Shown here: piece after piece, positions 512-40,992 of the stretch
How the letters are laid out: every line of letters begins with the position of its first letter
Position numbering within the stretch: position 1 is the stretch's first letter
Source: Deinococcales bacterium
Lineage (GTDB): Bacteria > Deinococcota > Deinococci > Deinococcales > JAAFIG01
Assembly: GCA_031414595.1 (NCBI GenBank)
Contig: JANNVX010000015.1
Location: 1-64,000 of the forward strand
Length of the DNA: 64,000 bases
Direction of reading: 5' to 3'
The notes under the pieces: generated by a model
What the model was told of the DNA's origin: nothing
The model's database searches: none
The model's input: only the letters and a program-made list of their open reading frames with translations
Position numbers and translations under genes: made by a program

Positions 512-874
512 GTGAATCAATACCGCATTTTGGTGATTGATGACGAACCCAGAATGCGAAGTCTGATGCAGCGTGGACTTGGTTTAGCTGGTTTTGTGGT
601 CGAAATCGCAGAAACTGGCGAAATAGGCTTAAAAATTGCCCTCGAAACCCGACCAGATTTAATTTTACTTGACCTGATGATGCCGGGTACATTCGATGGT
701 TTTGCTACCTTAGAGCATTTATTAAAACTCGAGCCTCGCCCAAAAGTGGTTGTGGTTTCTGGCAGAGACGAACCAGAAGACAGGCAAAGAGCCAAGATAG
801 CCGATGGATTTTTGGTCAAACCTGTGACATTTGATTTCTTAATAGAAACGATTTATACACTTATTCGGGCGTGA
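512..874 (+). CDS. Single-domain response regulator (receiver only)
   Basis: ILVIDDE, PDLILLDLMMP, VSG and KP receiver motifs; no output domain. Confidence 0.9.
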   Translation: MNQYRILVIDDEPRMRSLMQRGLGLAGFVVEIAETGEIGLKIALETRPDLILLDLMMPGTFDGFATLEHLLKLEPRPKVVVVSGRDEPEDRQRAKIADGFLVKPVTFDFLIETIYTLIRA

Positions 875-6674: not shown

Positions 6675-8147
6675 TCAAATCATCGAGCGGGTGGCAGCAA
6701 ATCCTTTTTTATATTGGGCAAAAGCAGCTTCTAAACTCGAGTCATGAACAATATTGATTGGCGTAGAACTTGGCGCGGTGGCTTCCAGCGCACTGGCTAC
6801 ACTGGGGTACACCCCAGCCCCGACCAAGCCAAGAATGGCAGCGCCCCGAGCGGGTCCTTCCTCAAGGGCGGGTTTCTCGAGTGGCACACCAAGCGCATTG
6901 CCAATAATGCCAAGCCAAAGGTTAGAGCGTGTACCGCCACCAACTGACAGGAGTTTTTCAGCTTTAGCAATTGGGTTCATCACCTCTAAGGTTTCACGCA
7001 GACTAAAAGCGACCCCTTCAAGAATAGCGCGGGTCATGTGTCCTCGAGTGTGGGCGAGGCTTAAGCCTAACCATGCACCACGCAGGTCTGGGTTTAAGTG
7101 GGGGCTGCGTTCTCCAGCCAAATAGGGCATAAAGGTCACGCCGTCCGAGCCGCTAGGCACATTGGCAGCTTCCTGCATCAATTCATCAAATGGAACATTC
7201 TTGGCAAGGGTGTCTCTGAACCACTGCAAGCTCCCAGCCGCACTGAGGGTACAACCCAAGAAAAAGTATCCACCGTCGGCGTGGCAAAATAAATGAACCC
7301 GTCCGTTGGGTTCAGAAATCGGTTGCTCGAGCGGCACAACAATCACACCGCTTGTACCAAGGCTAACACTGCCTAAGCCCGGTTTTTTGCTCGAGACCCC
7401 TAAACCGATTTGTGCGCCAGCGTTGTCGCCAGCCCCAGCCACTACAGGAATTGCAAGCGGCAGTCCAGTGGCTTGCGCCCAAGTGCTGGTCAGTTGCCCA
7501 ACCACACTATGTGAGGCTTGAATGTTTGGAAAGAGGCTCGAGTCTAGTTTTAAGGCGTTAAGAATATCGCTGTCCCACTCGAGTTTGGCAAGGTTGAGTG
7601 CGCCAACCCCACTGGCATCCGAGGGGTCAGAAGCGATTTGACCAGTTAAAGCAAAATTGAGGTAATCTTTGGGCAGTAAAACATGGCGTACTTTGGCGTA
7701 ATGTTCGGGTTCATTGGTGCGTAACCAAAGCAGTTTAGGCAGTTGAAAACCTGTCACGGCAGGATTGCCCGTGCGTTGAATCAGTTCTGAACGCCCAATG
7801 GCAGCTTCGATTTCTTGGCAAGCCGCACTGGTGCGTTGGTCGTTCCAAAGTGGAGCGGGACGAATCACCTTCAGGCTCGAGTCTAGAAATACCGCGCCGT
7901 GCATTTGTCCAGCCACACCAATCGCAATAGGGGTGTACTTGTTCTCGAGTTGGCTTGTCAGGGCTTTTAGGGCAGTTCTAACCCCTTCTAACCAATCGCT
8001 GGGGTGTTGTTCAGTCCAGCCGGGATGGGGGGTCAAGAGGGGGTACGTGGCGCTGCTTTCGGCAACCCTTACGCCTTGGGTGGTGACGGCAATAATTTTT
8101 ACCCCACTTGTGCCTAAGTCTATGCCTATTGAAACGGGTTCGGACAT
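6675..8147 (-). CDS. xylB: Xylulokinase
   Basis: FGGY motifs IDLGTSGVK, GQMHG, LWNDQR, GAGDNA and PYLAGERSP. Confidence 0.92.
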   Translation of the reverse strand: MSEPVSIGIDLGTSGVKIIAVTTQGVRVAESSATYPLLTPHPGWTEQHPSDWLEGVRTALKALTSQLENKYTPIAIGVAGQMHGAVFLDSSLKVIRPAPLWNDQRTSAACQEIEAAIGRSELIQRTGNPAVTGFQLPKLLWLRTNEPEHYAKVRHVLLPKDYLNFALTGQIASDPSDASGVGALNLAKLEWDSDILNALKLDSSLFPNIQASHSVVGQLTSTWAQATGLPLAIPVVAGAGDNAGAQIGLGVSSKKPGLGSVSLGTSGVIVVPLEQPISEPNGRVHLFCHADGGYFFLGCTLSAAGSLQWFRDTLAKNVPFDELMQEAANVPSGSDGVTFMPYLAGERSPHLNPDLRGAWLGLSLAHTRGHMTRAILEGVAFSLRETLEVMNPIAKAEKLLSVGGGTRSNLWLGIIGNALGVPLEKPALEEGPARGAAILGLVGAGVYPSVASALEATAPSSTPINIVHDSSLEAAFAQYKKGFAATRSMI

Positions 8148-8158
8148 GGTTTCCTTTC

Positions 8159-9784
8159 TTAACTAGCGGCTTGGTATTCAAAGTAATCAAAGTCGGCATG
8201 TAATTTTGTGCCAGCCAAATCTTGGACACAAAGGGCAATAAATGCACCTGTAAATGATAACCCATTGCAGTAATCGTCGGACAGTTTGTAGGTTTCAAAG
8301 TCCCCGCCGATTCGCGTCCAAATTACGCCATCACTCGAGTAAGCAAAGTGAAAGCTGTGGCGTTCGACAATAACCCGTAAATACACCGCGCCTTCTATGG
8401 CAACTTCTTGCGCCAGTGGCTCGGAATAAACACCCGCATCCAAGACCAGAATACTCAGGGTTTTACCTAGAATTTCGTCCTTTGAGACCCGCAAATACAC
8501 CCAATGCTGACTGTCGTAAAACATCGCAAGTCCAGCCATCTGTTGTGAATCGGTGGGGTTAAACTCGAGTTTGGTGCTGGCAGTGGCAGAAAAATCTTGT
8601 AAGCGCCGAGCGATTAAGCTCTGAAAGTGGTTGCTAATCAGGCTTTCACGCCCGTATAAACGCAAAAAACCCGGGCGCTCAGTCAGGGATAACCAACTTG
8701 GGTCAGTCGGAGTGCGTAAACTCTGCCAATCCAAACTCAGTTCGGCTTGGTCAAAGTCATCTCGAGCAGGTGCGGACTTCCAAGGGTGCGGCTCGAGGCG
8801 CGGGGCTGGGACTTGGCTGTGTGGGCTGTTGCCACCGCCGCGAACGTACAACCAGTCATCATCACGCCATTCCATGGCTTGTAACCCAGTTTCACGTCCC
8901 AGTGGGCAGAAACCTCTTTGGTTGTTCGGCTCGAGCGGACGACCACATAAGTGCGCCAAGTACCATTCGCCGTTCTGGGTTTGTACCAAACAGGCGTGTC
9001 CAGCTTTACGAAGCTCTAAGTCTGGTTTTTCCCATGAGGTCAGGATTGGATTTTGAGGATGAATTTCGTAATCTCCGTCCAAGGTTCTTGAACGGGCAAA
9101 GGTTACAGCATGTTCATAACTTGTGCCGCCCTCGGCGGTGAGTAAGTAATACCAACCGTTGCGTTTATAAATATGGGGACCCTCGACCAGTCCGATTGGA
9201 GTGCCAGTAAAAATGTTTTTAATTTCACCAACTAATTTCTGGCTTTTCGGGTCATATTCTTGGAGTAAAATCCCACTGAACTGATTTTTGCCCGCTCGGT
9301 GTTCCCAACGCATGTTGACCAGCCATTTTCGTCCGTCGTCATCATGAAAAAGGCTCGGGTCAAAACCACTGGAATTTAAGTAAATCGGCTCTGACCACTG
9401 CCCGTGGATGTCGGTTGTCGTGACCAAGTAATTGTGTGAATCTTTGAATGGACCAGAATTCCAAGTTTTGACATCGGTGTAAATCAAATGGAACTTTTCA
9501 CCATCATGGGTTAAACACGGTGCCCAAATTCCACATGAATTCGGGTTTCCACGCATGTCCAACTGACTCGAGCGACGCAAAGGTGGCTTAATCGTGCGCC
9601 AATACACAAGGTCACGGCTATGATGAATCCGCACTCCGGGAAACCATTCAAAGGTGCTGGTGGCAAGGTAATAGTCATCGCCTACCCTAAGAATACTTGG
9701 GTCTGGGTGAAAACCCGTTAAGACTGGATTCTGGATTTGGGTCATGACTGCCAAGGAGGTAGGCGGCTCGAGTGTTTGCATCAT
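8159..9784 (-). CDS. GH43 beta-xylosidase (XynB-like) with C-terminal beta-sandwich
   Basis: GFHPDPSI, WAP, GFDPSLF and EGPH motifs; no signal peptide; RBS AAGGAG. Confidence 0.92.
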   Translation of the reverse strand: MMQTLEPPTSLAVMTQIQNPVLTGFHPDPSILRVGDDYYLATSTFEWFPGVRIHHSRDLVYWRTIKPPLRRSSQLDMRGNPNSCGIWAPCLTHDGEKFHLIYTDVKTWNSGPFKDSHNYLVTTTDIHGQWSEPIYLNSSGFDPSLFHDDDGRKWLVNMRWEHRAGKNQFSGILLQEYDPKSQKLVGEIKNIFTGTPIGLVEGPHIYKRNGWYYLLTAEGGTSYEHAVTFARSRTLDGDYEIHPQNPILTSWEKPDLELRKAGHACLVQTQNGEWYLAHLCGRPLEPNNQRGFCPLGRETGLQAMEWRDDDWLYVRGGGNSPHSQVPAPRLEPHPWKSAPARDDFDQAELSLDWQSLRTPTDPSWLSLTERPGFLRLYGRESLISNHFQSLIARRLQDFSATASTKLEFNPTDSQQMAGLAMFYDSQHWVYLRVSKDEILGKTLSILVLDAGVYSEPLAQEVAIEGAVYLRVIVERHSFHFAYSSDGVIWTRIGGDFETYKLSDDYCNGLSFTGAFIALCVQDLAGTKLHADFDYFEYQAAS

Positions 9785-9819
9785 GGGTGTAACTCCTTAA
9801 ATGTAGTCTAGCATTTTCT

Positions 9820-11196
9820 TTATACGTGGCTGCTTAAAAAACCCTTAAACCAAAGACCGGATTCTTTTACAATTCGCTTCTGGGTTGTAAAGTCAACATA
9901 GGTCATGCCAAAGCGTTTTTCATAGCCTTCTGCCCATTCAAAATTATCTAAGAAACTCCATGCAAAATACCCTGTTAGTTTTGCACCATGTTCTATTGCC
10001 TCGAGACTGGCTTGTAGGTGTTGCTGGAAGTATAGGGTGCGTTCAGTGTCGTTAATGGCGTTATTCTCGAGACGGTCAAAGTAGCTTGCACCATTTTCGG
10101 TAATCAAGATACTTTTGGGATTGTATTCTTTTTGTAATCGCACTAGAAAATCGGTCAATCCTTGTGGGTACACTTCCCAATCAAAAAAAGTGCGTTCAAC
10201 ATCTTGTAAAAACACATGTTGATAACCAAGTAGGGCTTCTGGGCTGGCTTGATTTTGTATTTTGGCAGCTTTGACCACGGTTCTCGAGTAATAATTGATG
10301 CCAATAAAATCTAAGGGAGCAGCCATAATTTCTAAATCACCCTCAGCAATTTTGGGGGCATATGCGCCGTATAGCTCGATTAAATCTCTTGGGTAGCCTT
10401 GTCCAAATACGGGGTCAAAGTACCAACGGTTCTGGAATCCATCGGCTAAATGGGCAGCGCGTTGGTCTTCACCCGAGTCAGTTGCTGGGTACACAGGAGC
10501 GGGGTTAAGAACAATACCCGCTTGGGCATCGGGTACATTTTGACGAATAATCGGCATGGCTTGCCCGTGAGCCAGTAATAAATGATGGGTGGCTTGTAAA
10601 GAAGCTGCAAAATCGGTTTTGCCCGGCGCATGAATCCCAATTCCGTAGCCTAGGTACGCCGAACACCAAGGCTCGTTGAGGGTTGTCCAGTTCTTTAATC
10701 TGTCACCTAGAGCTTGGGTAACAACATCGGTATACTCGGCAAAAGCATCGGCAGTGTCACGATTTAACCAACCACCAGCATCCTCGAGAATTTGCGGTAA
10801 ATCCCAATGGTACAAGGTGGCATACGGTTCTATCCCTCGGTCTAGCAGCCCGTCCACAATTCGGTCATAAAATGCCATGCCTGTCGGATTGACTGCACCG
10901 CGTCCATTAGTCACGACTCGAGACCAAGAAATCGAAAAGCGGTAGGCATTAAAACCAAGTTGCTGCATTAAATCAAAATCTGATGGGTATAAATGATAAT
11001 GGTCGCACGCCACATCGCCAGTATCGCCATTTTTGACTTTACCGGGGGTTTTGGCAAAAATATCCCAAATGCTTGGGGTGCGTCCATCGAGGGCGGCAGC
11101 CCCTTCGATTTGATACGAAGCCGTGGCTGTCCCCCAAATAAAGTTATTGGGGAATTGTTTTCTTAAAATACTTGGTTTTTCGATTGTTTTTATCAT
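9820..11196 (-). CDS. GH1 beta-glucosidase
   Basis: GTATASYQIEG, TLNEP, ITENG and DNFEWAEG motifs. Confidence 0.95.
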   Translation of the reverse strand: MIKTIEKPSILRKQFPNNFIWGTATASYQIEGAAALDGRTPSIWDIFAKTPGKVKNGDTGDVACDHYHLYPSDFDLMQQLGFNAYRFSISWSRVVTNGRGAVNPTGMAFYDRIVDGLLDRGIEPYATLYHWDLPQILEDAGGWLNRDTADAFAEYTDVVTQALGDRLKNWTTLNEPWCSAYLGYGIGIHAPGKTDFAASLQATHHLLLAHGQAMPIIRQNVPDAQAGIVLNPAPVYPATDSGEDQRAAHLADGFQNRWYFDPVFGQGYPRDLIELYGAYAPKIAEGDLEIMAAPLDFIGINYYSRTVVKAAKIQNQASPEALLGYQHVFLQDVERTFFDWEVYPQGLTDFLVRLQKEYNPKSILITENGASYFDRLENNAINDTERTLYFQQHLQASLEAIEHGAKLTGYFAWSFLDNFEWAEGYEKRFGMTYVDFTTQKRIVKESGLWFKGFLSSHV

Positions 11197-14100
11197 GGTT
11201 TAACCTCTTTTGTTATTTGTGCATAGCGGTGCGGTGGCATTTCCAAGACCACGCCATCGGAAAATGTGGCGATTTGCAAAGTTGAACTTGGGTTATAGGC
11301 AAAATAGGTGCGGATGTTGTTTTTTTCCAGCACCGCAAATTGGGCGGTGTCGGCTAAAATTTTTTGGTTCGGCACACCGTAGGCTTCCAGACTCGAGAAC
11401 CAATGGTGTGTCTGCACCAAGGAATTACCAAACTCTGGACGCAATTCTTGATTCCACAGGCTTTTGCCAAGACTCGGATTGCCAAGCGCCAAGTACATTG
11501 CTGAAAGGTCATTCCAGTAGCGCTCCTTGGAAAAACTGGCAAAGTTATTTGCAATAAAACCCTGTTCTCGAGCCAAATACAAACTTGCGCCAGTCAAAGG
11601 TAAGGCGTTAATTAAGTGAATTGCGCCTTTGACGCTAGTCCACCAAGTTCCGTACTGTCCGCCATCGCCCCAAAGAATCCCAATCGCAGTTGGTGCAAAA
11701 GTGGCTGGAAAGTTTTTGCCAGCCGCAAACCAATACTGCCAAACAGCATTGGTCTCGAGGGCGTACATCCCAATGGCTCGTTCGAGTAATTCTGGGTTTT
11801 GACTGACCTGAGCGTAACGAATTAAACCCGCCCAAGCATTGACCGCTTCGCTCGAGGATTCTTGATTTGCGCCGCGCATCCGCCCACGGTTATCACCACT
11901 TGCCCATGAATGCCCAGCGTAAGCATCAAAGTTATGAGTTTTGGTAAATGAAGCATCATTTTCTTCTGCTGCCATTTCTCGAGCCAAAACATCAAGCACA
12001 GTACGGTGTTTATTAAGCCAAGTAGGGTCGCGTTCGGCAACACTGGCAGCCGCATGAAGAAAATAACCAAAATTAAAATGGTGATCGTTGAGTTGATAAT
12101 CTGCTCCATGTGAAGCTGGCACTGGAATAACTGTTCCCCAACGTCCATCCCAAAAAAGTGCATGTGGTGGGGCTGGGTCAAACCATTCTTCAAGCCGTTC
12201 TTTGATGGCATTGACCAACGTTTGCACGGCTACAGGTTCATCAAGTTGCTCGGCAACCTCGAGCATTTGGCTTAAGCGCCCAAAATTACGAGCATCAGTG
12301 TACCCATCGGTAATGCGAATGCTTTCTGGGGATAATGGAAAAAATTGTTTACGTTCAATAAACGCTAACAATGCCGTGCGGATTTCGGCTCGAGCCGTTG
12401 TATCTGGGCTAATCGGCAAGTTTGGCAAAATCCCCGTGTATGGTGTACTGGTCACAAAAGAATTGGTGGCAGCCAAACGAATCTGCCCTCGAGCCGAAAT
12501 ATAACTCCATTTGGATAATTCGAGTGTGGTGTTTTTGTGTTGATGCGGGTATAAACCCATGATTGGTGTTCCGCTTCTGGTCTCGAGCCGATGGGTTGTT
12601 TCTACGCTTTGCCCAGCCCAATTCCATGAAACTTTAGAATTGGTTGGTATTGCCAAATGCTGGGCTAAAAAGGTTGTGGCTTCGAGTCGCAATTCTGGGT
12701 TTTGTTGGGCTTCTTCGGGCAAGGCAGCCACCGTTAAACGACCACCTGAAACAAATCGCTGATTCTTAGAACCACGCCATTTTGCACCCTGCGAAGTAAA
12801 AATTAGATAATCACGTCCAGCTACACGTAACCCAGTTGCATCACAAGCAAGTTCAATGCAGGGACGCGCCCAAATCTGAGGTGACTCGAGAAACGATAGC
12901 TTTATTTCTTGATTGGCACTAAACCAAACAAAAGGTAAGCCTCGTCCAAAAGTAGAATGCAGCACTTGCTGGTCGTTCTTAAATTCACTGCGAACCACAA
13001 AATCACTAGCAGCATCCACTCGAGCATCAGAGAAGGTTTGATTGGTCAAGCCAACTGTCATATGCGGTGCGAACGGCGTGGTAAAGCCTTCCTCTCCTAC
13101 CTCGAGCTTCGGGTAATTTAATGCCATGCCATTGGCAGTGGCTTGTAGGGCAAAAGGTTGTGCCATGAGCGCGCCAGAAAACTTTTCCCACAGGAGCGAA
13201 CCCCACCAAGCATTGGTTGGGTAAGGCGCACTAAAATTCTTGGTCTTAAACTCTGGGGCTGGAGGCGCTCGGAAATTGCCTTCACGCCACTGGGTCACCA
13301 ATTGCGGCGCTGGTTTTTGCAAGATAACTGGTTTGCGGTATACCAAGCGCCAAAAACTACGGGCTGGCAGAACAATTTGGGCTGATAGTGCCAAACGTAA
13401 ATCAGGCTTTTCGGCTTGTACCACAGCATCGGTGAAGCCTTTAATACCAATCAGTTCCCAACCGTTCAAATTGGTCTCGAGAAGTTGCGAAGCCAAACTG
13501 GTGTTAGTTGCCATAACTGTCAAACGATTTTCTTGTTGTGCTGCATGAAGCCATAAATTTGGATTATTAGAATTCAATTTTATGGCATGACCAGTAAAAT
13601 GCTTTAAGTGCCTAAACGCATAATAAGTTGCCCGTGGTACACCAGAAATATCGAGTGTGCCATGTCCGCCAATGCCCTGCAAAGCAAAATAAGCGTTCAA
13701 GGTTGCCCCAGCGCTTGCCATTCGCAAAGTGGTTTCGGCAGCCCAGAGTCCCGCCAGTTGATCGCCAATGTGCCTATTGCTTTCGGTGCGGTACGACAAA
13801 CCATATTCGGTTAAGCCAAAACCAATTTGTTTTTGATATGCCAAAGGGTTTTTTTCGGGGTCTTTCCAAAGTGCCATGTACTGTTCTCGTTCAGTGTCTA
13901 CTCGAGCAATACTGGCAATCGCGGCATCTTCGGTAGCCCGACCATCGGTTGGATAGACATGCCACGTTAAAACATCTATTTGATCGCCACATAAACGCAC
14001 AAAATCGGCAAGAAAGGCAGTATCTCCTGTGGTACTCGGTCCTGCAAATTTGGCATTTGGCTGCACCTCGAGAATAGCGGCTCGGTGTGCCTTAAAGGTC

Positions 14101-14618
14101 TGGCAGTATTTCTCGCTTGTCCACGTTTTATCGCCTCTGGTCACGGCATATAAATTAGGTTCGTTGCCAACGCTCCAATAATCCACTTTTATCTTGTTTT
14201 CAAAAGCCAACCGCGCAGCGTTTGCCGCATCCTCAGTACGGTTTTTACCGTCGCCTCGAGCGCCCTGAAAAGCTCTGGTTTGGATAATTACTTTTGGCGC
14301 AACCCCGTTTAACTCGAGTAACTTAAGGTTAATTGCAAAAATTCGCATACTCGAGGCGTTCAAGTCTTGGTCATCGCCAACATTACCAGCCGGAAACCGC
14401 ACAAGGCGCGGTTGTAACTCGAGCAGCGCCTTTTTATTTTCAACAATATTCATCATATTGCCAAGGTTAAAACCAGAGACCGCTTCAGCTTGAATTGGTG
14501 TACCAAGCACGCCTAACTCGAGCTTGGTGCTTTGGCTGGTTAGTGTCTTAGCCGTACCAATTGAAAAAGAAGATAGCGCAAGACACCCAAAAAACAACAA
14601 AACCCCAAATCGTTTCAT
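11193..14618 (-). CDS. Secreted two-domain glycoside hydrolase: clan GH-A-like N-terminal domain + GH81 endo-beta-1,3-glucanase
   Basis: Signal peptide MKRFGVLLFFGCLAL. N-domain: RFPAG, WSVGNEP, WHVYP, LTEYG. C-domain GH81: PTNAWW, NDHHFNFGY, FDAYAGHSWASG, NQESSSEA. Confidence 0.82.
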   Translation of the reverse strand: MKRFGVLLFFGCLALSSFSIGTAKTLTSQSTKLELGVLGTPIQAEAVSGFNLGNMMNIVENKKALLELQPRLVRFPAGNVGDDQDLNASSMRIFAINLKLLELNGVAPKVIIQTRAFQGARGDGKNRTEDAANAARLAFENKIKVDYWSVGNEPNLYAVTRGDKTWTSEKYCQTFKAHRAAILEVQPNAKFAGPSTTGDTAFLADFVRLCGDQIDVLTWHVYPTDGRATEDAAIASIARVDTEREQYMALWKDPEKNPLAYQKQIGFGLTEYGLSYRTESNRHIGDQLAGLWAAETTLRMASAGATLNAYFALQGIGGHGTLDISGVPRATYYAFRHLKHFTGHAIKLNSNNPNLWLHAAQQENRLTVMATNTSLASQLLETNLNGWELIGIKGFTDAVVQAEKPDLRLALSAQIVLPARSFWRLVYRKPVILQKPAPQLVTQWREGNFRAPPAPEFKTKNFSAPYPTNAWWGSLLWEKFSGALMAQPFALQATANGMALNYPKLEVGEEGFTTPFAPHMTVGLTNQTFSDARVDAASDFVVRSEFKNDQQVLHSTFGRGLPFVWFSANQEIKLSFLESPQIWARPCIELACDATGLRVAGRDYLIFTSQGAKWRGSKNQRFVSGGRLTVAALPEEAQQNPELRLEATTFLAQHLAIPTNSKVSWNWAGQSVETTHRLETRSGTPIMGLYPHQHKNTTLELSKWSYISARGQIRLAATNSFVTSTPYTGILPNLPISPDTTARAEIRTALLAFIERKQFFPLSPESIRITDGYTDARNFGRLSQMLEVAEQLDEPVAVQTLVNAIKERLEEWFDPAPPHALFWDGRWGTVIPVPASHGADYQLNDHHFNFGYFLHAAASVAERDPTWLNKHRTVLDVLAREMAAEENDASFTKTHNFDAYAGHSWASGDNRGRMRGANQESSSEAVNAWAGLIRYAQVSQNPELLERAIGMYALETNAVWQYWFAAGKNFPATFAPTAIGILWGDGGQYGTWWTSVKGAIHLINALPLTGASLYLAREQGFIANNFASFSKERYWNDLSAMYLALGNPSLGKSLWNQELRPEFGNSLVQTHHWFSSLEAYGVPNQKILADTAQFAVLEKNNIRTYFAYNPSSTLQIATFSDGVVLEMPPHRYAQITKEVKP

Positions 14619-14660
14619 GCCTAAACGCTCCATCGTGACTGCTCGAGCCACTGCCAATTT

Positions 14661-15518
14661 TTAACTCTTGACCGAACCTGCGGTCAAACCAGAAATCAGT
14701 TGTCTTGAGGTCAAAATAAAAATAATCAAAAGCGGCAAAACCGTGATTGCTGTTCCCATCATCAAACCACCATAATCAACGTTGGTGGCAGTTGTTCCAC
14801 CTGAAATGGCACGAATTAGGGTTTGAAGGGTTCGAGTTTCGGCACTCCTAAAAATTAGGCTTTGCAACACAAATTCATTCCAAACGCCAATAAAAGTAAT
14901 TAAGCCCAGTGTGCCAAGCGCAGGTCGAATAAGCGGTAAAATAATTCGCCAGAACATCCCAAATTCTGTACAACCGTCTACCCTTGCCGCATCCATCAGT
15001 TCTCGAGGAATTGCACTTTGAATATATTGACGGGTTAAAAAAATTCCAAACGCACTTGCCATGCCCGGAAACCACAGGGCTTTAGGCTGGTTAATCCAAC
15101 CAATTAAATTCATCACTAGATAAAAAGGAATCAGGTTCAAAGCGGCTGGAATGGCTTGAGTCGCCACGACCACAGCAAATAAGGCATTTTTGCCCTTAAA
15201 GTCATACATTGCAAAACCGTATCCAGCCAAAGAACAAAAAAAGATGGTTGTGACTGTGGCAATGCTGGCTAAGTAAAAACTGTTCCAAAAGACCCGCCAG
15301 AATGTTCCAGCCGTCATGGTCATCAGGGCATTGTAATTGCTGACAATTTGTTCAAAACTGCCAAAAGTCAGTGGCGGTGGGAACGAAAAAATGGTTTCCC
15401 TACTTTGGGTGGCAAAAACCAGCATAAAGTAAAGCGGCAGAATCATTAACAAACCACCAAATAGGATTAGCCCGTAAATAAGTGCATTTCCAAAAGTCAG
15501 TTTTTGCATATCAATCAT
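14661..15518 (-). CDS. Carbohydrate ABC transporter permease (MalG-like)
   Basis: Multi-TM; EAA loop LMDAARVDGC. Confidence 0.93.
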   Translation of the reverse strand: MIDMQKLTFGNALIYGLILFGGLLMILPLYFMLVFATQSRETIFSFPPPLTFGSFEQIVSNYNALMTMTAGTFWRVFWNSFYLASIATVTTIFFCSLAGYGFAMYDFKGKNALFAVVVATQAIPAALNLIPFYLVMNLIGWINQPKALWFPGMASAFGIFLTRQYIQSAIPRELMDAARVDGCTEFGMFWRIILPLIRPALGTLGLITFIGVWNEFVLQSLIFRSAETRTLQTLIRAISGGTTATNVDYGGLMMGTAITVLPLLIIFILTSRQLISGLTAGSVKS

Positions 15519-16476
15519 TCCTTAATTTGGCAAAGATTTGATTATTGATGATGGTCAGAACAATAATCACCGCAAATAAAACCCATGTCTGGGTGGCTGC
15601 ATCACCAAATAACAAGTTATTAAAAGCGTTATCCCAAAGGTACATCACTGATGTACGCCCCGCGTTTCCAGTTCCGCCAGCCGCATTGACCAATAAGAAT
15701 GGTTCGGCAAATAACTGCATATTGCCAATAATTGTAAATGTAACCGCCGTAAACATGGTTGGGCGCAAGAGCGGCAGTGTGATATAGCGAAAACGTTCAA
15801 AACGACTTGCCCCATCTACTTCGGCGGCTTCGTATAAATCCCCAGAAATGGCTTGTAGACCAGCCAAATACAGCACCGTATTCCAGCCAGTGTAGCGCCA
15901 AACCACCAGAATCGAAATCGAAATTGGAATCATGTGCCTGTCGCCTAACCAGCGCACAGGTTCATCGGTCACAAAGTTATTCAATACGGGAATCTTATTA
16001 AAAACCTCGAGCAGTAACCAGTTTAAGACACCACTGCGTTCCGAGTATAATGTGCCGAAAACAGCCGCAATTGCGGCGACCGAAGTTACGAAAGGGGCAA
16101 AGTAAACAGCCGTCACAAAGCCTTGCATTTTTTTCATGCCAGTGTGAATCATAAAGGCAAGCGGAATGGCAATTAAGTGCTGTGGTAAACCCGAAATAAG
16201 GGCAATATAAGCGGTTTGTTTGACTGAATTCCAAAAAGCAGTGTCTTGGGTAAATAAAAATATATAATTATCTAAACTAACAAATTTCATGCCACCCAAA
16301 CCAGAAATCGCGTCCCAACTGGTTAAGGAAACGTAGACTGAAAAAATCATTGGGAACAATCCAAAAATAAGAAAAAGAATAAAAAATGGGCTAATAAACA
16401 CATAGGGCGCTAAGGTACGTTGCCAGCGCGTATAGAAACGTTCAAAATTAAATTCTCTATTTTTTTCAACCACCAT
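15511..16476 (-). CDS. Carbohydrate ABC transporter permease (MalF-like)
   Basis: Multi-TM; EAA loop LYEAAEVDGAS. Start placed at ATG 16476 (approximate). Confidence 0.92.
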   Translation of the reverse strand: MVVEKNREFNFERFYTRWQRTLAPYVFISPFFILFLIFGLFPMIFSVYVSLTSWDAISGLGGMKFVSLDNYIFLFTQDTAFWNSVKQTAYIALISGLPQHLIAIPLAFMIHTGMKKMQGFVTAVYFAPFVTSVAAIAAVFGTLYSERSGVLNWLLLEVFNKIPVLNNFVTDEPVRWLGDRHMIPISISILVVWRYTGWNTVLYLAGLQAISGDLYEAAEVDGASRFERFRYITLPLLRPTMFTAVTFTIIGNMQLFAEPFLLVNAAGGTGNAGRTSVMYLWDNAFNNLLFGDAATQTWVLFAVIIVLTIINNQIFAKLRND

Positions 16477-16557
16477 GCTTTTCACGTTTAAGTCCTTTGA
16501 AGAGCAGGCTCGAGCGAGTGACTCGAGCCTCACATTTACTACAATTTGTAAGGAGGT

Positions 16558-16596: not shown

Positions 16597-17856
16597 TTAA
16601 CGGCGGGCGCGTTTTTCGATTTCGGCACGGGCTTCGGTCAAAGCAGCACGGATGTCTTTGCCCTCGTCGAGAACCGCAGTCAATTGAGTTGTGACAATGG
16701 TTTCGGCAACACTGTCGTACTTATTGACATCAAGTGGTTTGATTTTTTGGGCAGCAGCTTTCCAGAGTTGACGGGCTTTTTGACCACCAAGGAAAGGTAC
16801 TGGTTCGTTAAAGCTGGCATCTGACCAAGCGGCTTTCAGGCTTGGGAATGCGCCGTTGCCTTTGAAAGCAGCAATTTGTTGCTTTCGATCCATCGCCAAA
16901 AATTTGATGATGTCCCAAGCCTCTTTTTTGTTCTTGCTGGCGGTTGGAATGGTGTAGAAGCTACCGCCCCAAGGAGCATATGCGCCATCTGGCAAGTCTT
17001 GAACCCGCCATAATCCTTTGGTTTCTGGTGCCATCCAGTTCTGGAAGTGACCTTGTAACCAAGCACCGCTAAATTGGGTAGCGACAGTCCCGCCCTTAAA
17101 GCCTTCGTACCATTCGTTGCTCCACTCACCAATTTTGGCATCGAGTTTAGCATCGCGGATTTGCTTAGCGATGGTAAAGGCTTTGACCCAACGGGCGCTG
17201 TCTGGTCCGACAATGACTTTGTTGTCCTTAGAAAAGTAAATACCTTCGCCGGCTGGAATGTTTGAGCGCCAGATTAGACCTGCGGCGCTGGCAGCGCTGT
17301 TAATCAGGAATACTTTTTTGTCTTTGGCTTGAATTTTCTTACCTGCGGCAATGTAACCTTCCCAAGTGGTCAGGTCGTTAGCGGTCACACCAGCATTATC
17401 TAAAATATCTTTGCGGTAAAAGGTTGTCCCAGGTCCGATGTCGGCTGGCATACCAATGTAACGACCGTCAGAAGCCGTAGCCTGACCAACGGTGTAATCC
17501 ACAAAGAGGCTCTTGAGTGGTTTAGCGTTGTATGGGGCTTTGTTGAGGTCTTCTAAGCCGCCGCCTTCAGCAAATTTACCAACAAAACCAATCTCTACGG
17601 CTTCGATGTCGTGCAAACCCTGTCCGGTTGCAAGGGCTGTGGTTAGGGCTTGGTGATGATCGCCGTATTGCAAGGCAACCAGTTCAATTTCGTAGTTTGG
17701 GAACTTGGCTTTTAGGGCGGGCATGGCGATTTTAATGGCTTCGTCGAGGCTTGGGAAAGCAGCGATAGAGATTTTTTTCATGCCACCTTGAGCGGCGACT
17801 AAACCAGTGATGGCAACGGCTGCCAAACCAAATGCAACTAATGTACGAGCTTTCAT
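16597..17856 (-). CDS. Carbohydrate ABC transporter substrate-binding protein
   Basis: Signal peptide MKARTLVAFGLAAVA; SBP family 1 features (PADIGP, WGGSF); RBS GGAG. Confidence 0.92.
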   Translation of the reverse strand: MKARTLVAFGLAAVAITGLVAAQGGMKKISIAAFPSLDEAIKIAMPALKAKFPNYEIELVALQYGDHHQALTTALATGQGLHDIEAVEIGFVGKFAEGGGLEDLNKAPYNAKPLKSLFVDYTVGQATASDGRYIGMPADIGPGTTFYRKDILDNAGVTANDLTTWEGYIAAGKKIQAKDKKVFLINSAASAAGLIWRSNIPAGEGIYFSKDNKVIVGPDSARWVKAFTIAKQIRDAKLDAKIGEWSNEWYEGFKGGTVATQFSGAWLQGHFQNWMAPETKGLWRVQDLPDGAYAPWGGSFYTIPTASKNKKEAWDIIKFLAMDRKQQIAAFKGNGAFPSLKAAWSDASFNEPVPFLGGQKARQLWKAAAQKIKPLDVNKYDSVAETIVTTQLTAVLDEGKDIRAALTEARAEIEKRARR

Positions 17857-17957
17857 GGTGTTCCTCCAAATGAGTGAATGAGGGCTTAATTCCAAGATAA
17901 CGAGGTGCTAATCAAATATCCTCCTTGCGGTTGACACAAAAAACTAAATAAAAGGCT

Positions 17958-18965
17958 TTAAGAAAAACGTAGACGTGATGTAGATTCACGAAGAATTAAG
18001 CTAGGTGTAAGGGTAGTCGGTTTTTGAAGATGACCCTCGAGTAAATTCAGTACCATTGCCGCCGCCGCCGCCCCCATGTCTTCGCCCGGTTGGCGCACCG
18101 TTGTTAGCGGAGGGGTGGTGTATCCTGCGGCAAAAAGGTCGTCAAAGCCAACCAGACTCATGTCTTCAGGAACCCTGATACCACGGCGGAATAAGGCTAA
18201 ACGTGCGCCCATTGCAGTCTGGTCATTGGCGGCAAAAATAGCCGTAAAGTCGGCGCGGCGTGAAAGCAGCAATTCTGCGGCTAATAACCCACCGCGTTCT
18301 TGAAAATTACCCTCGAGTACAAGGTCTGGATCGTAAGCAATACCAAATTCGGCTAAGGCTGCCTTATAACCGGTTAAACGCTCAATTGAATCACGGTGCG
18401 TGCTAGGTCCTGCCAAATGGGCGATTTTGCGATGCCCCAACTCGAGCAAGTGACGCATACCAAGCATTGCTCCGTCCTCTTGACTGATGTAAATGCTTTG
18501 GCGTTCTAAACCTTCAACCGACCGACCAACCGTGACGATTGGTAATGATTTCGCCATTTTAAGGATGTATTCATCCTCGAGATTTCCACCAAGAATAATG
18601 ATTGCATCTGACCGACGTGCCGTTAGAATATCCACAGCTTCACGTTCTTCATCTGCCCGCCAATGCCCAGAAATAAACATCGGGTGATAGCCACTGTTTG
18701 CCAGTCCTTGTTCGATACCAACAAAGGTTTCACCATAAAACGGACTCGAGATGGCTTGGGTCACTACCCCAATAATCATTGAACGACCTTTTGCAAGCGC
18801 TTGCGCCATCACATTTGGACGATAACCCAGCGAAGCAATTGCATCTTCGACTGATTTACGTTTGTCTGAACTGACCACAGCCGTCCCGTTGAGGATTCTC
18901 GAGACCGTACTGGGCGAGACATTCGCAATTTTGGCAACATCATTTAAGGTGCGTGCTTGGGACAC
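17958..18965 (-). CDS. LacI-family transcriptional regulator
   Basis: HTH TLNDVAKIANVSPSTVSRILN, hinge YRPNVMAQAL, PPLTTVRQ. Confidence 0.95.
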   Translation of the reverse strand: MSQARTLNDVAKIANVSPSTVSRILNGTAVVSSDKRKSVEDAIASLGYRPNVMAQALAKGRSMIIGVVTQAISSPFYGETFVGIEQGLANSGYHPMFISGHWRADEEREAVDILTARRSDAIIILGGNLEDEYILKMAKSLPIVTVGRSVEGLERQSIYISQEDGAMLGMRHLLELGHRKIAHLAGPSTHRDSIERLTGYKAALAEFGIAYDPDLVLEGNFQERGGLLAAELLLSRRADFTAIFAANDQTAMGARLALFRRGIRVPEDMSLVGFDDLFAAGYTTPPLTTVRQPGEDMGAAAAAMVLNLLEGHLQKPTTLTPSLILRESTSRLRFS

Positions 18966-19004
18966 TTAACAAACTCCTTTGAGGTGATTTCTTGAATGTT
19001 CTGG

Positions 19005-19033
19005 ACTTTATCAGATGTTGAAAGCGCTGTCAA
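19005..19033 (-). promoter_or_regulatory. Promoter with overlapping LacI-type operator
   Basis: Minus strand TTGACA-17 nt-TAAAGT. The palindrome TTGAAAGCGCTGTCAA (19018-19033) has the central CG typical of LacI operators. Confidence 0.8.
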
Positions 19034-19066
19034 GAGTTGGCGAATCAAGCCAAAAATAAATGGCGA

Positions 19067-22000
19067 TTATGCAGAACCTCGGGTCTTTTCTTCGAGAAAT
19101 GGCGCTTCGATGTGCCGATACGACCAAGTTGCCGCCAGATACGCCAAACCCAAGCCCAAGCCTGATAACCAGAAAAACTCGAGTGGATTTTGAATACCAC
19201 CGTAACGAAAATCTGGGTTGTGCAGCAAGCGAATCGTCTCGAGAATCGGATAATGCCAAATGTAGAGTCCAAAAGAAATTTTTGCCGTATGGCGAAAAAA
19301 AGCATTGTCAAATAAACGCCCTAAGACTCGAGAAAATGGCAAAGTGACGAGCATAATTGCAATGGTCAAAGGAAACCACGGAAAACGGTATGGCTGGGCT
19401 TGAAAACTCGAGCCAAAATCCCCTGCTCCACGCCAGAACCACAACAGTGCCAGCATTGCCATAAACGCCAACAACGCAACGCCATCAAAAGCTGCACTGA
19501 CCCTGCCCTGACGGTTCTTGCGATCTACAATAAAGCCGGCTGCCAGCACGCCAAGCAGATAATGGGCAAACATCCCAATCGCGTTGTAATTTGGCATCCA
19601 GTATTTAGCGCCGCCAATTAAGCCATGCTCCCAACCACGATTTACATTGTCCGGTACAAGCCCTTCGAGAATCAGATGATTTGCCACAAAAACAATGCCT
19701 AATAAACCAAGCCAAAACTGCACCGCAAACCAAAAGCCACGTTTTGGGAACTGCACAAATAATAACCACATCCCAAGCGGCATTAAAAGATAACAAAAGA
19801 CTTCAAAGCCAATGCTCCAAAGCGGACCATTAAGTTCGACTGGAAAAAAAGTGATATGCGAAAAAGCACTGGTAAAGGTCGCGGCGGACAGTAAACGCAA
19901 CCAAATTTTTTCACCGTCCACCGCAAAAAATAAACCCAATAAAAAACTGACCAATAAACTGGCATAAAAGCCCGGCACAATCCGCACTGCCCTGCGCCGT
20001 GTGTACTCGAGCATATTTGGCATTGGTTTTTGTGCCAAGTATGCTTTCCAGAACGGAATTGAAAGCAGCATTCCAGATAAGACAAAAAAGGCACTGACCC
20101 CAGCGCTGCCCTGTTCAAAAAAAGCATCAAAAAACTGAAGTTCTGCACCTGCCTGTCTGGAATCAAAACGCTGCCACAAATGATGCAAAATCACCATTAA
20201 GCAACCAATCGCCCTGACCCCATCCGCGCCTTGCAGGGTTTGCGCTCCAAAGACTTGCACTCGAGAACGATTTGCCCAAAGGGTTTGCCAACGCCCCCAC
20301 CAAGGCGCAGCCACAGTTGCTACAGCGATATTTAAGGCTAAACTAATCTGACGCGCAAAGACCAAAAACACCAATAAAGGCACTAAACTCGAGATGGCTG
20401 TGCCAATCAAATATGCGCCACTCAGACCACTTCTAGCATTCATATAGGCTAAAATCTGCCCAACCATCTGCTGTTCTGGCGACTTTAAGAGGGCTAAAGC
20501 CACCGAGTTATTGTTCCAAACCGTCACAAAGGTCATTAAACCAAGGGTGGCAAGGGCTGGGCGAGCGAGCGGTAACATGATTTGTCCATAAATCCGCAGG
20601 TCACTTGCTCCATCAATTCGGGCTGCCTCGAGTAAGGATTTTGGCACAGCACTCTGCACATATTGACGCACCAAAAACACCCCAAAAGCCGAAACCATCC
20701 CAGGAACCCAAATTGCTTTAGGCTGGTCTATCCAACCTAAAATTGCCATATTGACCGCCGTTGGAATCAGATTCATTAAACTTGGAAAGAGCATCACACT
20801 CAGCACCAGACCGTACAAAATGGCTTTACCGCGAAACTCGAGCAGCGCAAAAGCAAAACCCGCTAGACTCGAGACCAACACCGCTCCCAAAGTCGAAAGA
20901 AGGGCAATATAGGTGCTGTTCCACAAATTACGCCAAAAAGTCGGTTGTGCCTCAAGCAACAAAGCATAATTATCTTGCCAAGCATCGCCGACACCAAGCC
21001 AAGCCCCAGAGTATGAGCGTGTACCTGAGAGTAACAAGTTAAAAATCGGAATTAGACACAATGCCAAACCAGCCAGTAAAATAAATTTCATCACCACCCG
21101 AGCGGCTTTAGAAAACTGCAATGGTGAATTGTCTGACTCGAGCAGGGCAGTCGTCTCGAGCAGGGTAAAGTTACGCCCAAAAAGCTGATAGAACACAAAA
21201 ACAATCAGGGCGATGCCTAAAAAGAACAACCATGTCTGAGCGCTGGCTAAGCCAAAATCGGCATCCCAAAAAGCAGTGCGAATAATATAAGTCGGTAAAT
21301 CAATACTGCGAATATCTGAAACCAGACCAAACCACTGCCCAACCGAAGTCTGTGTGCCACGCAAAAAACTCATGGTGAATGCCACAAAAATCATGGGGCG
21401 CATCATCGGTAGCGCCAGATGCCAAAATAAACGCCAAAAACTCGCCCCGTCTAGCTGAGCGGCTTCGTACAAACTGCGAGGCACAACGTTTAAGACCATT
21501 AAGTAAAGTAAGACATTCCAACCAGTCACATTCCAAAGTTGAGTAAAAGCTGCCGAACTTTCTGAGTAAAAAGAAGACAGTGACGGCAAACTCGATGCAA
21601 AAATTGGCAAAGCCGAAAGCAGTGATTCAAGTCCCAAAGGCAGCCCCCAGAAAATTGTAAAAATTGCACCTAGAACCGCCCCTGCCGCTAAACTCGAGGT
21701 CATAAACGGCACAAAAATAATCGTGGCAATTAAACCCTGAATTCGCTTAAAGGCAATATGCAGCATAAACGCCAAAGGAATGGCTAGTAAATGCTGTCCT
21801 AGTGCTGTGATTAAAGCCAATCGCAATGAACGCCACCAACCCTGCCAGAAAATCGGGTCTTGAACAGTGTAATTAAACGCCCACAGACCATCAAAACGCA
21901 TACCGCTTAGTCCACTGCTGGGATTCCATTCCATAAAGGCAACCACCAAGGACAAAAACAGTGGAGCAAAAGCAAACAACAACAACAAGATAAAAAACGG

Positions 22001-22090
22001 GGCAATAAAGACATAAGCACTGCTCGAGTGCAACGAAGAACGCTTGGTGTTGGTACGCGAGGGCGCACTTTGTAAAGGTTGACTGACCAT
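19067..22090 (-). CDS. Fusion protein: MalF-like permease + MalG-like permease + acyltransferase-3 (OafA/YrhL-like)
   Basis: Two EAA loops (LYEAAQLDGAS, LLEAARIDGAS) followed by AT3 motifs DGVRAIG, FFVLSG, RRAVRIVP, LWSIGFE, SFGLYIWH and IEAPF, all in one open frame. Confidence 0.85.
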   Translation of the reverse strand: MVSQPLQSAPSRTNTKRSSLHSSSAYVFIAPFFILLLLFAFAPLFLSLVVAFMEWNPSSGLSGMRFDGLWAFNYTVQDPIFWQGWWRSLRLALITALGQHLLAIPLAFMLHIAFKRIQGLIATIIFVPFMTSSLAAGAVLGAIFTIFWGLPLGLESLLSALPIFASSLPSLSSFYSESSAAFTQLWNVTGWNVLLYLMVLNVVPRSLYEAAQLDGASFWRLFWHLALPMMRPMIFVAFTMSFLRGTQTSVGQWFGLVSDIRSIDLPTYIIRTAFWDADFGLASAQTWLFFLGIALIVFVFYQLFGRNFTLLETTALLESDNSPLQFSKAARVVMKFILLAGLALCLIPIFNLLLSGTRSYSGAWLGVGDAWQDNYALLLEAQPTFWRNLWNSTYIALLSTLGAVLVSSLAGFAFALLEFRGKAILYGLVLSVMLFPSLMNLIPTAVNMAILGWIDQPKAIWVPGMVSAFGVFLVRQYVQSAVPKSLLEAARIDGASDLRIYGQIMLPLARPALATLGLMTFVTVWNNNSVALALLKSPEQQMVGQILAYMNARSGLSGAYLIGTAISSLVPLLVFLVFARQISLALNIAVATVAAPWWGRWQTLWANRSRVQVFGAQTLQGADGVRAIGCLMVILHHLWQRFDSRQAGAELQFFDAFFEQGSAGVSAFFVLSGMLLSIPFWKAYLAQKPMPNMLEYTRRRAVRIVPGFYASLLVSFLLGLFFAVDGEKIWLRLLSAATFTSAFSHITFFPVELNGPLWSIGFEVFCYLLMPLGMWLLFVQFPKRGFWFAVQFWLGLLGIVFVANHLILEGLVPDNVNRGWEHGLIGGAKYWMPNYNAIGMFAHYLLGVLAAGFIVDRKNRQGRVSAAFDGVALLAFMAMLALLWFWRGAGDFGSSFQAQPYRFPWFPLTIAIMLVTLPFSRVLGRLFDNAFFRHTAKISFGLYIWHYPILETIRLLHNPDFRYGGIQNPLEFFWLSGLGLGLAYLAATWSYRHIEAPFLEEKTRGSA

Positions 22091-22106
22091 AATAATTTTA
22101 TTGAAC

Positions 22107-22124
22107 TCTGAAAGCCCTTTCAGA
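22107..22124. promoter_or_regulatory. Second LacI-type operator-like palindrome
   Basis: TCTGAAAG-CC-CTTTCAGA, between divergent genes and next to a minus-strand TTGACA (22128-22133). Confidence 0.6.
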
Positions 22125-22193
22125 TTGTGTCAAAATAATGACATGTGATGTATTCTGAACCATCCCGCCCCACAAAGACGTAAACTAAGCATC

Positions 22194-30988: not shown

Positions 30989-30993
30989 CAGGG

Positions 30994-40943: not shown

Positions 40944-40992
40944 AGACTTCTCCTTTAGACCAAGTATGAAGTATGGGTGGTTACACCCTTGT

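Follow-up and report, generated by a model that had tools for sequence, protein, structure and literature searches.

In the first 64,000 nucleotides of contig JANNVX010000015.1 of a Deinococcales bacterium (assembly GCA_031414595.1; this whole stretch is referred to below as the window), a single gene on the minus strand joins both permease subunits of a sugar ATP-binding cassette (ABC) importer to an acyltransferase-3 (AT3) domain. The gene (19067..22090) is one unbroken ATG-started frame of 1007 codons plus a stop, as had been claimed in a preliminary description of this DNA, and its product is one 22-helix inner-membrane protein consisting of a CUT1-type MalF-like half, a MalG-like half and a complete AT3/TmAT domain, in that order. 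The Pfam family Acyl_transf_3 (PF01757) covers residues 621-987 with an E-value of 1.1e-29 and 104 bits against a cut-off of 31, which corresponds to positions 3-325 of the 326 in the profile, and BPD_transp_1 (PF00528) matches two stretches of the protein (E 1.7e-17). With NCBIfam, a UgpA/GlcT/MalF-type half was recognised at about residues 24-305 and a UgpE/GlcU/MalG-type half at about 334-580. Since all NCBIfam scores are far under the equivalog cut-offs (89.6 against 340 bits for GlcU, 86.7 against 297 for UgpE), the two halves form a CUT1-type pair that is none of the named transporters (UgpAE, MalFG, GlcTU). The domain ranges in the preliminary description agree with these Pfam and NCBIfam limits, and both EAA loops that it had listed as kept are indeed present (E209-A-A...G215 and E488-A-A...G494), together with all of the AT3 catalytic motifs. 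The matches of the protein at E ≤ 0.01 include neither an SGNH/GDSL family nor a hexapeptide-repeat (left-handed beta-helix) family, there is no 11th AT3 helix, and the chain stops 8 residues past the helix 969-999.

The same architecture was found in many other genomes. A word-indexed search of 5.8 billion proteins gave 69 matches among 8000 scored candidates; PF01757 and PF00528 occur together in 66 of these, and 65 are 823-1188 residues long. The fusion also occurs in isolate records under the names Deinococcus rufus, D. yunweiensis, D. metalli and D. sonorensis. Databases annotate such proteins just as 'acyltransferase family protein' or with a composite automatic name. Logan contigs from two runs cover positions 18900-22200 in one piece, including both junctions, with 0 differences and no indels listed; as they possibly derive from the source sample, independent support comes from the recurrence of the architecture in other assemblies. 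An apparent Logan joint at 19837>21496 was rejected as a deletion because it consists of short matches (29-letter sides) of another contig.

To describe the conservation of the protein we used an alignment of 64 full-length fusions, on which the AlphaFold2 (AF2) model discussed below was also built. The mean identity to the window protein is 52% for the MalF-like half, 54% for the MalG-like half and 60% for AT3. Linker 1 has a mean identity of 51% and a fixed length, with 41-44 residues between anchor residues; linker 2 has 22% identity and 35-90 residues between its anchors. Residues E209, A210, G215, E488 and G494 of the EAA loops, as well as D623, R626, H637, F668, G673, R700, R703 and S939 of AT3, are invariant in all 64 proteins, and Y943 is found in 97%. 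In seven orthologue pairs the ratio of nonsynonymous to synonymous substitution (dN/dS, Nei-Gojobori) is 0.03-0.13 in each of the three domains and about 0.5-1.4, near neutral, in linker 2, with dS saturated in every pair except the closest one, and the fused transmembrane domains (TMDs) diverge about as slowly as conventional TMDs across the same genomes. All three parts of the fusion are evidently under purifying selection. A few relatives are broken, one by an in-frame TGA (L009) and two by fragmented frames (L019, L061), and this is what one would expect if the gene were an assembly or frameshift artefact or a decaying pseudogene, outcomes that the preliminary description had named as refuting its reading. 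However, all of these broken copies come from fragmented metagenome bins, and the isolate genomes, the contigs across the junctions, the low dN/dS values and the invariant motifs refute this explanation, to which we give next to no probability.

Among 363 genomes of the order, an AT3-only profile detected the clade in 32: the window genome itself, 15 of the 18 others in its own family, and 10 of 125, 5 of 68, 1 of 128 and 0 of 23 in the other four families. A profile scan of genome contigs showed the MalF-like part (F), the MalG-like part (G) and AT3 in one frame at 16 loci, all in Deinococcota (Deinococcales bins, Deinococcus and Meiothermus). In trees, the fused MalG-like halves form one clade (SH-like approximate likelihood ratio support 84-92) next to the conventional permeases of the same locus type, and the fused AT3 domains form one clade (support 96), with one Meiothermus row just outside. 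Within the window genome, the best matches of the fused halves are those of a second fused paralogue (200 and 179 bits) and of the neighbouring permeases (188 and 152 bits), everything else scoring at most 113 and at most 65 bits. The preliminary description had called the halves diverged paralogues of these neighbours; the peptide pair that it quoted is real, and the MalF-like and MalG-like halves are 36% and 40% identical to their respective counterparts in the conventional pair (Table 1). Because the fused parts form single clades and, among conventional permeases, match the neighbouring ones most closely, the fusion appears to have arisen once in the Deinococcota lineage from a duplicate of the permease pair of this locus, and to have been duplicated afterwards.

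AT3 domains of the same clade were also found in other combinations. A profile search of 1.84 billion cluster representatives yielded 103,271 matches at E ≤ 0.001, and the best 150 of these plus six found earlier (156 in all) were mapped with our own F, G and AT3 profiles and a Pfam check. The layouts comprise F-G-AT3 (4 representatives), F-AT3-G (P0079, Rhizobacter bin), F-AT3 (P0083; P0087 from Uliginosibacterium bins), G-AT3 (P0086, a cluster with 29 members), AT3-G (P0089 from a deltaproteobacterial bin; P0066), AT3-DUF2141 (P0067, P0092) and, in Actinomycetota bins, AT3-MFS, in which the AT3 clade is fused C-terminally to an MFS transporter (L038:9962-12439, 826 residues; L042:9962-12352, 797 residues). 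At least six layouts (F-G-AT3, F-AT3-G, F-AT3, G-AT3, AT3-G and AT3-MFS) thus combine this one AT3 clade with transporter domains. The tree places the MalG-like parts found in the layouts other than F-G-AT3 outside the Deinococcota clade; with permease parts from different lineages, the fusions are separate events. The helix number of every module is even and its two termini are both cytoplasmic, which explains why the modules could be joined in any order. Twelve representatives are F-G proteins without AT3, among them P0084 (a Deinococcus misasensis record), which is the closest protein of this kind to the TMD pair of the window (532 bits). We also asked whether F-AT3 proteins serve as the sole F subunit of an SBP (solute-binding protein) operon, but this is unsupported: the only such locus with flanks (L119) adjoins dnaG and tsaD and has no G or SBP gene, and the other 79 loci of that scan contain ordinary permeases or are short contigs. 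In three gammaproteobacterial loci (L066:6190-11149, L072:6167-11083 and L053:6500-11149) a GH3-like gene (GH, glycoside hydrolase family), two very divergent BPD_transp_1 permeases and an AT3 gene of the same clade are adjacent. The idea that they represent a split form of the fusion was rejected, as their permeases are on a separate and very long branch, at 2.2-2.3 changes per column, and we regard them as an independent association. The GH3-like protein of these loci (706-709 residues) has weak matches to the GH3 N- and C-domains, a 290-residue N-terminus of no family and no adjacent SBP gene; a DUF2141 gene lies nearby in L066. Stand-alone relatives of the AT3 domain (39-53% identity, about 405-450 residues) were found in a Trueperaceae bin, Meiothermus hypogaeus, Actinomycetota, Paenibacillus, other Bacillota, many Devosia and a Rhodoferax bin.

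The fusion gene of the window is followed on its own strand by the genes of a sugar-utilisation locus for a LacI-family regulator, an SBP, a conventional permease pair and catabolic enzymes (Table 1), and a Ser/Thr kinase gene lies divergently upstream of it. Usable flanks were available for 22 distinct fused loci, 15 of which are situated within sugar-utilisation loci that contain LacI, SBP, conventional permease pair and GH genes. These 15 are all 7 window-type loci in the family of the window genome, one locus each in Meiothermus and Deinococcus, and all 6 second-paralogue loci. Window-type loci carry GH10, GH43, xylose isomerase, xylulokinase and/or GH81 and GH1 genes, and in several loci (L020, L026, L076, L100) the fusion is the final gene of a run SBP-permF-permG-GH...-GH43 (or GH3). 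A complete conventional permease pair is kept in every one of the 15 sugar loci, so the fusion is an extra module rather than the sole importer. The genome encodes one MalK-type ATPase (OB_MalK), located elsewhere, and the sharing of one MsiK-like ATPase among importers is a known arrangement; the SBP of the locus is a candidate for being shared with the conventional pair.

The second paralogue of the window genome (G000:C95:19820-23050, corresponding to L011:9820-13044 on the minus strand, outside the window) encodes 1074 residues that are 37-49% identical to the window protein, and is situated in a mannan-type locus. As a rule, second-paralogue loci have a GH2 beta-mannosidase-like gene before the fusion, with LacI, SBP, two permeases, GH5 and GH1 on the divergent side. 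In L011 the GH2 beta-mannosidase-like gene, a gene for a CE7 acetyl-xylan esterase (CE, carbohydrate esterase family) and the fusion form an overlapping operon, the CE7 gene overlapping the start codon of the fusion, and the divergent side contains in addition a sugar-isomerase-like TIM barrel and a GFO/MocA oxidoreductase. CE7 was rejected as a constant partner of the paralogue, being found between GH2 and the fusion only in genus g1 (the window genome and L034) and not in L094, L095, L096 or L062; in L095 an SGNH esterase gene lies beside the fusion. Xylan and glucomannan are O-acetylated in nature, and CE7 enzymes act on imported acetyl-oligosaccharides. A third, more distant paralogue (L097:8328-11453, G011:C75; 1042 residues, about 40% identical) is found in one genus.

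A 14-bp palindrome, which we take to resemble the operator consensus of the LacI family, is centred 26 nucleotides upstream of the fusion ATG, and a second palindrome sharing 12 of its 14 bases precedes lacI (Table 1). As the pattern was derived from these two sites, the statistic within the window (4 strand-hits against 0.26 expected) is circular, and the independent evidence is the recurrence across genomes. The palindrome is centred 23-26 nucleotides upstream of the fusion start in 8 loci (the window, L014, L016, L017, L031, L036, L101 and L104), the expected count being about 0.06 per 20-kb locus at up to 2 mismatches. In L016 and L017 it is also found 58-59 nucleotides upstream of lacI and 44-46 nucleotides upstream of the SBP gene, and it precedes the SBP gene in L026 and L076 as well. 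In two Deinococcus genomes the fusion is unlinked and lies among aro genes. Each of these genomes has 4-5 sites at up to 1 mismatch genome-wide, with 0 for a reversed-pattern control, and the only further site pair precedes lacI and the SBP gene of an orthologous LacI-SBP-permF-permG-(GH81)-GH1-GH43 locus that is on another contig or 1.46 Mb away. Such unlinked regulon membership accounts for 4 of the 7 fused loci without sugar neighbours. The fusion gene accordingly appears to belong to the LacI regulon of a xylo-/beta-gluco-oligosaccharide locus even when it is unlinked. At the second-paralogue loci no site was found in L011, L034, L094 or L096, and one site with 2 mismatches lies 152 nucleotides upstream in L095; in these loci the fusion and a LacI gene of their own share a divergent promoter region. 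A third match in the window genome (C11:14427) was taken as chance, since it falls in a CRISPR-like repeat array (G000:C11, about 14370-14510, outside the window; a direct repeat of about 35 nucleotides with spacer), where a spacer-repeat junction resembles the operator. In the window, an mRNA with no leader or almost none is suggested by the promoter-like -10 hexamer, which ends 5 nucleotides before the fusion ATG, and by the lack of an evident Shine-Dalgarno sequence; Deinococcus orthologues instead have GGAG between operator and ATG.

The AF2 model of the fusion (mean predicted local distance difference test, pLDDT, 83.1; predicted template modelling score, pTM, 0.80) contains 6 + 6 + 10 transmembrane (TM) helices and two short coupling helices (205-213 and 484-492), the ten AT3 helices being located between residues 622 and 999. 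With VIA-align, the best structural match is Thermus FbpB (9j4r_A; Z 25.1, 476 residues aligned, model residues 37-585), and MalG (2r6g_G) and SugA (7caf_A) follow with Z 19.3 and 19.2. The AT3 part (model residues 616-999) aligns with human HGSNAT (8vlu_B) at Z 16.9, with a root mean square deviation of 5.0 over 289 residues; Foldseek on its own gave merely E 0.049 for this match. A sequence search of the PDB with the fusion returned no AT3 chain at E ≤ 0.001, all 16 matches being permeases, and the ESM Atlas gave generic 'acyltransferase family' clusters and nothing more specific. Motifs of AT3 proteins that contain acyl-CoA-binding or catalytic residues have been defined as DxxR, R/K-X10-H, FxxxxG, RxxR and SxxxY in two papers (PMC7448272, PMC12423673). 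Every AT3 residue assigned to acyl-CoA binding or catalysis in the AT3/TmAT literature is retained in the fusion, and the catalytic His is predicted to face outward in the models.

To obtain a view of how the parts are arranged, residues 24-590 and 615-1003 were folded as two chains in three runs with three controls, using our own alignment. The median ipSAE score of AT3 on the TMD pair was 0.67 (runs 0.68, 0.67 and 0.54) against 0.00 for the best control. In the calibration, which holds only roughly because of our own alignment, 58 of 80 solved complexes and 2 of 110 mismatched pairs attain this mark. The runs share at least 96% of contacts, and the partner pLDDT is at least 82. The predicted interface lies in the membrane and involves AT3 TM helix (TMH) 3 (706-723), the 9-10 loop (955-959) and TMH10 (993-998) on one side, and the MalG-like TM1 (328-347), the first outer loop (362-367) and residue 146 on the other. 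The models would thus place AT3 beside the channel and not within it, with its outer face near the surface where the binding protein would dock, as that surface is located in MalFGK2 structures.

Our preferred reading, which we hold tentatively and as plausible rather than probable, is that the fusion is a module of the membrane which depends on SBP and MsiK and attaches O-acyl groups to the oligosaccharide that passes through its hands; acceptor, acyl group, direction and purpose are what we infer. The permease pair would run an ATP-driven cycle with the single MalK/MsiK-type ATPase of the genome and would take over an oligosaccharide from the SBP of the locus. AT3, packed in the membrane on the MalG-like TM1, would bring an acyl group, most likely acetyl, outward from cytoplasmic acyl-CoA, and the oligosaccharide would be O-acylated at the outer face on receipt or translocation, so that one complex served both acylation and transport. 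Such a module would act beside the conventional permease pair and not in its place. After uptake, cytoplasmic esterases could strip off the acyl group, candidates being the CE7 enzyme translationally coupled to the paralogue and the SGNH esterase next to another copy. Its purpose might be the trapping or marking of the sugar, the exclusion of unusable sugars or the formation of an inducer. In a more far-reaching form, which we consider possible though rather doubtful, this would amount to group translocation by acylation: the SBP-delivered sugar would be O-acetylated by the built-in AT3 during the ATP cycle, enter as an acetyl-sugar and be deacetylated by cytoplasmic CE7 or SGNH enzymes, with the acetate recycled via acetyl-CoA synthetase. 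The arrangement would then have originated on at least five occasions, through fusion of a single AT3 clade with CUT1 permeases or MFS transporters in different orders, and transporters would be the partner that presents acceptors to stand-alone AT3 proteins. A stand-alone AT3 gene is divergent from an acetyl-CoA synthetase gene in Demequina aurantiaca (L045, L047). The functional link between AT3 and sugar transport appears much stronger than the preliminary description could know, because of the repeated independent fusions and the LacI regulon membership when unlinked. Its suggestion of a sensing module found no support, as the protein has no output domain.

Several observations weigh against acylation coupled to uptake. 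The AT3 clade consists for the most part of stand-alone proteins (107 of the 156 mapped), and those in Devosia, Paenibacillus, Actinomycetota, the Trueperaceae metagenome-assembled genome and Meiothermus hypogaeus are situated in unrelated housekeeping contexts, so that the basic acceptor of the clade could be something else. The F-AT3 gene of L119 has no partner permease or SBP gene nearby, the third paralogue (L097) has genes of fatty-acid synthesis and cytochrome P450 as its neighbours instead of sugar genes, and the full conventional permease pair in every sugar locus leaves the need for a second, acylating module unexplained. In addition, the predicted interface of AT3, with 29 contacts, is small and involves the peripheral MalG-like TM1, away from the central translocation path; the model lends no support to acylation inside the channel. 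The interface residues are no more conserved than their own domains, with 0.41 for the interface and 0.62 for the domain on the TMD side and 0.72 and 0.68, respectively, for AT3, and hence the arrangement of AT3 comes from the models and not from conservation.

Other functions are therefore to be weighed. Sugar operons are known to encode detoxifying acetyltransferases (lacA, maa), and a comparable safety valve at the membrane would acylate the same SBP-delivered sugars in order to keep unusable or excess oligosaccharides out or to bar their re-entry, while the conventional pair imports. This would explain why the conventional pair is always kept beside the fusion and why the regulon is shared, and it fits a peripheral AT3 with an outward catalytic His. 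Nevertheless, we regard it as unlikely: a mechanism of discrimination is not evident, the CE7 and SGNH esterases by the fusions suggest that acyl-sugars enter (though these loci may target naturally acetylated mannan), and the invariant EAA loops argue for a full ATP cycle, which acylation outside the cell would not obviously need. It is similarly improbable in our judgement that the permease pair no longer translocates and only docks the SBP, perhaps with the ATPase as a gate, to hand AT3 its acceptor, a version of the substrate capture considered in the preliminary description. A working permease pair is always there in addition to the fusion, and there are single-TMD fusions (F-AT3, G-AT3, AT3-G), in some cases with no partner permease in the vicinity. 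One paper (PMC9833829) states as an open question of the field by what route a stand-alone AT3 protein comes into contact with its acceptor and whether a partner is needed for this. Yet the TMDs are conserved like genuine permeases, with the low dN/dS extending over their whole length and beyond docking loops, and the EAA loops that are invariant in the 64 fusions are also kept in the F-AT3 family.

A further explanation is that AT3 acylates an envelope glycan (peptidoglycan, an S-layer or another polymer), that the ABC part powers, gates or anchors it, and that the link to sugar loci is only regulatory. The characterised bacterial AT3 systems listed in a review all act on surface or secreted glycans (PMC9558356), and the housekeeping contexts of the stand-alone orthologues in several phyla fit the same idea. 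On the other hand, the LacI-type operator is present at 8 loci, the fusion is co-operonic with GH genes in others, a second paralogue belongs to a different sugar locus, and the independent fusions repeatedly involve solute-importer domains and an MFS transporter specifically; we therefore give modification of the envelope only a small probability. An AT3 clade that has repeatedly been joined to solute-importer domains and placed under sugar-responsive control is a 'Rosetta stone' that hints at a transporter partner for AT3. If acylation is coupled to transport, it would be a new chemical step for SBP-dependent ABC importers, with a bearing on the handling of acetylated hemicellulose fragments; if AT3 acts on the envelope instead, the fusion would be the first AT3 driven or gated by an ABC module.

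In full-text literature searches, which did not extend to supplements or to the Pfam architecture pages cited by AT3 papers that may list it, no description of this architecture was found, in line with the statement of the preliminary description that no fusion to an importer was known to have been described. One paper (PMC6045613) contains both Pfam numbers, in unrelated tables. In the available portions of a 2022 AT3 review and of 2020 mBio, 2023 eLife and 2025 JBC papers, the terms 'ABC' and 'permease' occur 0 times, and the fusions discussed there are restricted to AT3-SGNH, AT3-racemase and the eukaryotic NRF type, beside AT3 alone. Databases do show the architecture, by way of the automatic names mentioned above.

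Compared with known systems, the fusion shares PF01757, the ten-helix core and the motifs DxxR, R-X10-H, FxxxxG, RxxR and SxxxY with the AT3-only Oac/OacB of Shigella phages and with the AT3-SGNH proteins OafA/OafB and OatA, and the same chemistry as in Oac, OafA and OatA is presumed, namely presentation at the outer face of an acyl group from cytoplasmic acyl-CoA. Unlike OafA/OafB and OatA it has no 11th helix or SGNH domain and ends after TMH10, and unlike Oac, OafA and OatA it has two N-terminal ABC-importer TMDs and is regulated with sugar catabolism, not with surface-glycan synthesis. MalFGK2, LpqY-SugABC and the alginate importer AlgM1M2SS share with it the type I importer TMD fold (Z 17-19) and the EAA loops, an SBP gene and a MalK-type ATPase being available here too; in contrast to these systems, both TMDs of the fusion are in one chain and are combined with an enzyme domain. 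FbpB of Thermus thermophilus is a natural two-TMD fusion, and thus a single-chain TMD pair works in the phylum Deinococcota, although FbpB is an iron importer without an acyltransferase. Human HGSNAT, the lysosomal heparan-alpha-glucosaminide N-acetyltransferase, is the one well-studied case of transmembrane acetylation serving glycan catabolism; it has the same TmAT fold, but belongs to a different Pfam family (10-12% identity), N-acetylates glucosamine and has no transporter domain. In VanT, AT3 is joined to a serine/alanine racemase, and the membrane domain has been proposed to cooperate in small-solute handling (PMC9558356). Its partner is a soluble enzyme and not a transporter, unlike in the fusion, and the function of VanT is also unproven. 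LacA and Maa are acetyl-CoA-dependent sugar O-acetyltransferases that are encoded and regulated with sugar uptake systems; being soluble cytoplasmic left-handed beta-helix enzymes, they resemble the fusion, which has no such domain, in function only.

Table 1. Positions in the window of the fusion gene, its parts and motifs, the operator-like sites and the genes of the sugar locus. Residue numbers (aa) refer to the fusion protein unless a gene size is given.
Feature	Coordinates	Strand	Remarks
Fusion gene (P0001), MalF-like TMD + MalG-like TMD + AT3 acyltransferase	19067..22090	-	Frame, Pfam, NCBIfam; AF2 mean pLDDT 83.1, pTM 0.80
MalF/UgpA/SugA-like permease domain	21176..22021	-	aa 24-305; six predicted TM helices and coupling helix
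EAA loop / coupling helix, first TMD	21446..21478	-	aa 205-215; E209, A210, G215 invariant 64/64
Linker 1	21092..21175	-	aa 306-333; C-terminal end 328-336 within predicted AT3 interface
MalG/UgpE/SugB-like permease domain	20336..21091	-	aa 334-585; six predicted TM helices
EAA loop / coupling helix, second TMD	20609..20641	-	aa 484-494; E488, G494 invariant
Linker 2	20231..20335	-	aa 586-620; low pLDDT, one short helix 597-610
AT3 / TmAT acyltransferase domain	19091..20230	-	aa 621-1000; ten predicted TM helices
AT3 TMH1 motif DxxR...H	20180..20224	-	D623, R626, H637; R-X10-H; invariant 64/64
AT3 TMH2 motif FFVLSG (FxxxxG)	20072..20089	-	Invariant
AT3 TMH3 motif RxxR	19982..19993	-	R700, R703; invariant
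AT3 TMH9 motif SxxxY	19262..19276	-	S939 64/64, Y943 97%
LacI-type 14-bp palindromic operator-like site	22109..22122	.	Centre 26 nt upstream of fusion ATG; overlaps -35 of promoter-like site 22123-22095 (-)
Second operator-like palindrome	19019..19032	.	12/14 bases shared with first; upstream of lacI, overlaps promoter-like site 19033-19005
LacI-family regulator of the locus	17958..18965	-	Pfam, NCBIfam
Extracellular solute-binding protein (SBP_bac_1), candidate shared SBP	16597..17895	-	Pfam
Conventional permease pair	14661..16533	-	MalF-like 15511-16533, MalG-like 14661-15518
Downstream catabolic genes	6675..14657	-	Pfam; GH81-like (1154 aa) 11193-14657, GH1 9820-11196, GH43 8159-9784, FGGY sugar kinase 6675-8147

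Some other genes of the window were recorded as well. The GH81-like protein of the sugar locus is unusually long, with a GH81 C-domain at 780-1045, a weak GH81 N-domain and a weak GH39-like match at 161-251, and it has no NCBIfam match. About 9 kb from the fusion, a polysaccharide deacetylase gene (CE4-type, weak match) adjoins an MFS transporter gene (29888-31944, minus strand), and no link between these genes and the fusion was seen. The plus-strand gene at 871-4515 encodes a 1214-residue chain with a CheB methylesterase, a CheR methyltransferase, two PAS domains and a histidine kinase. Four minus-strand frames of 1028, 569, 223 and 287 residues (40993-44079, 61202-62911, 40389-41060 and 49990-50853, respectively) match no Pfam family at E ≤ 1e-6. 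Finally, an AAA_15/AAA_21 ATPase with DUF3696, followed by a 163-residue protein of no family (55012-56864, plus strand), may be a small defence-type pair.

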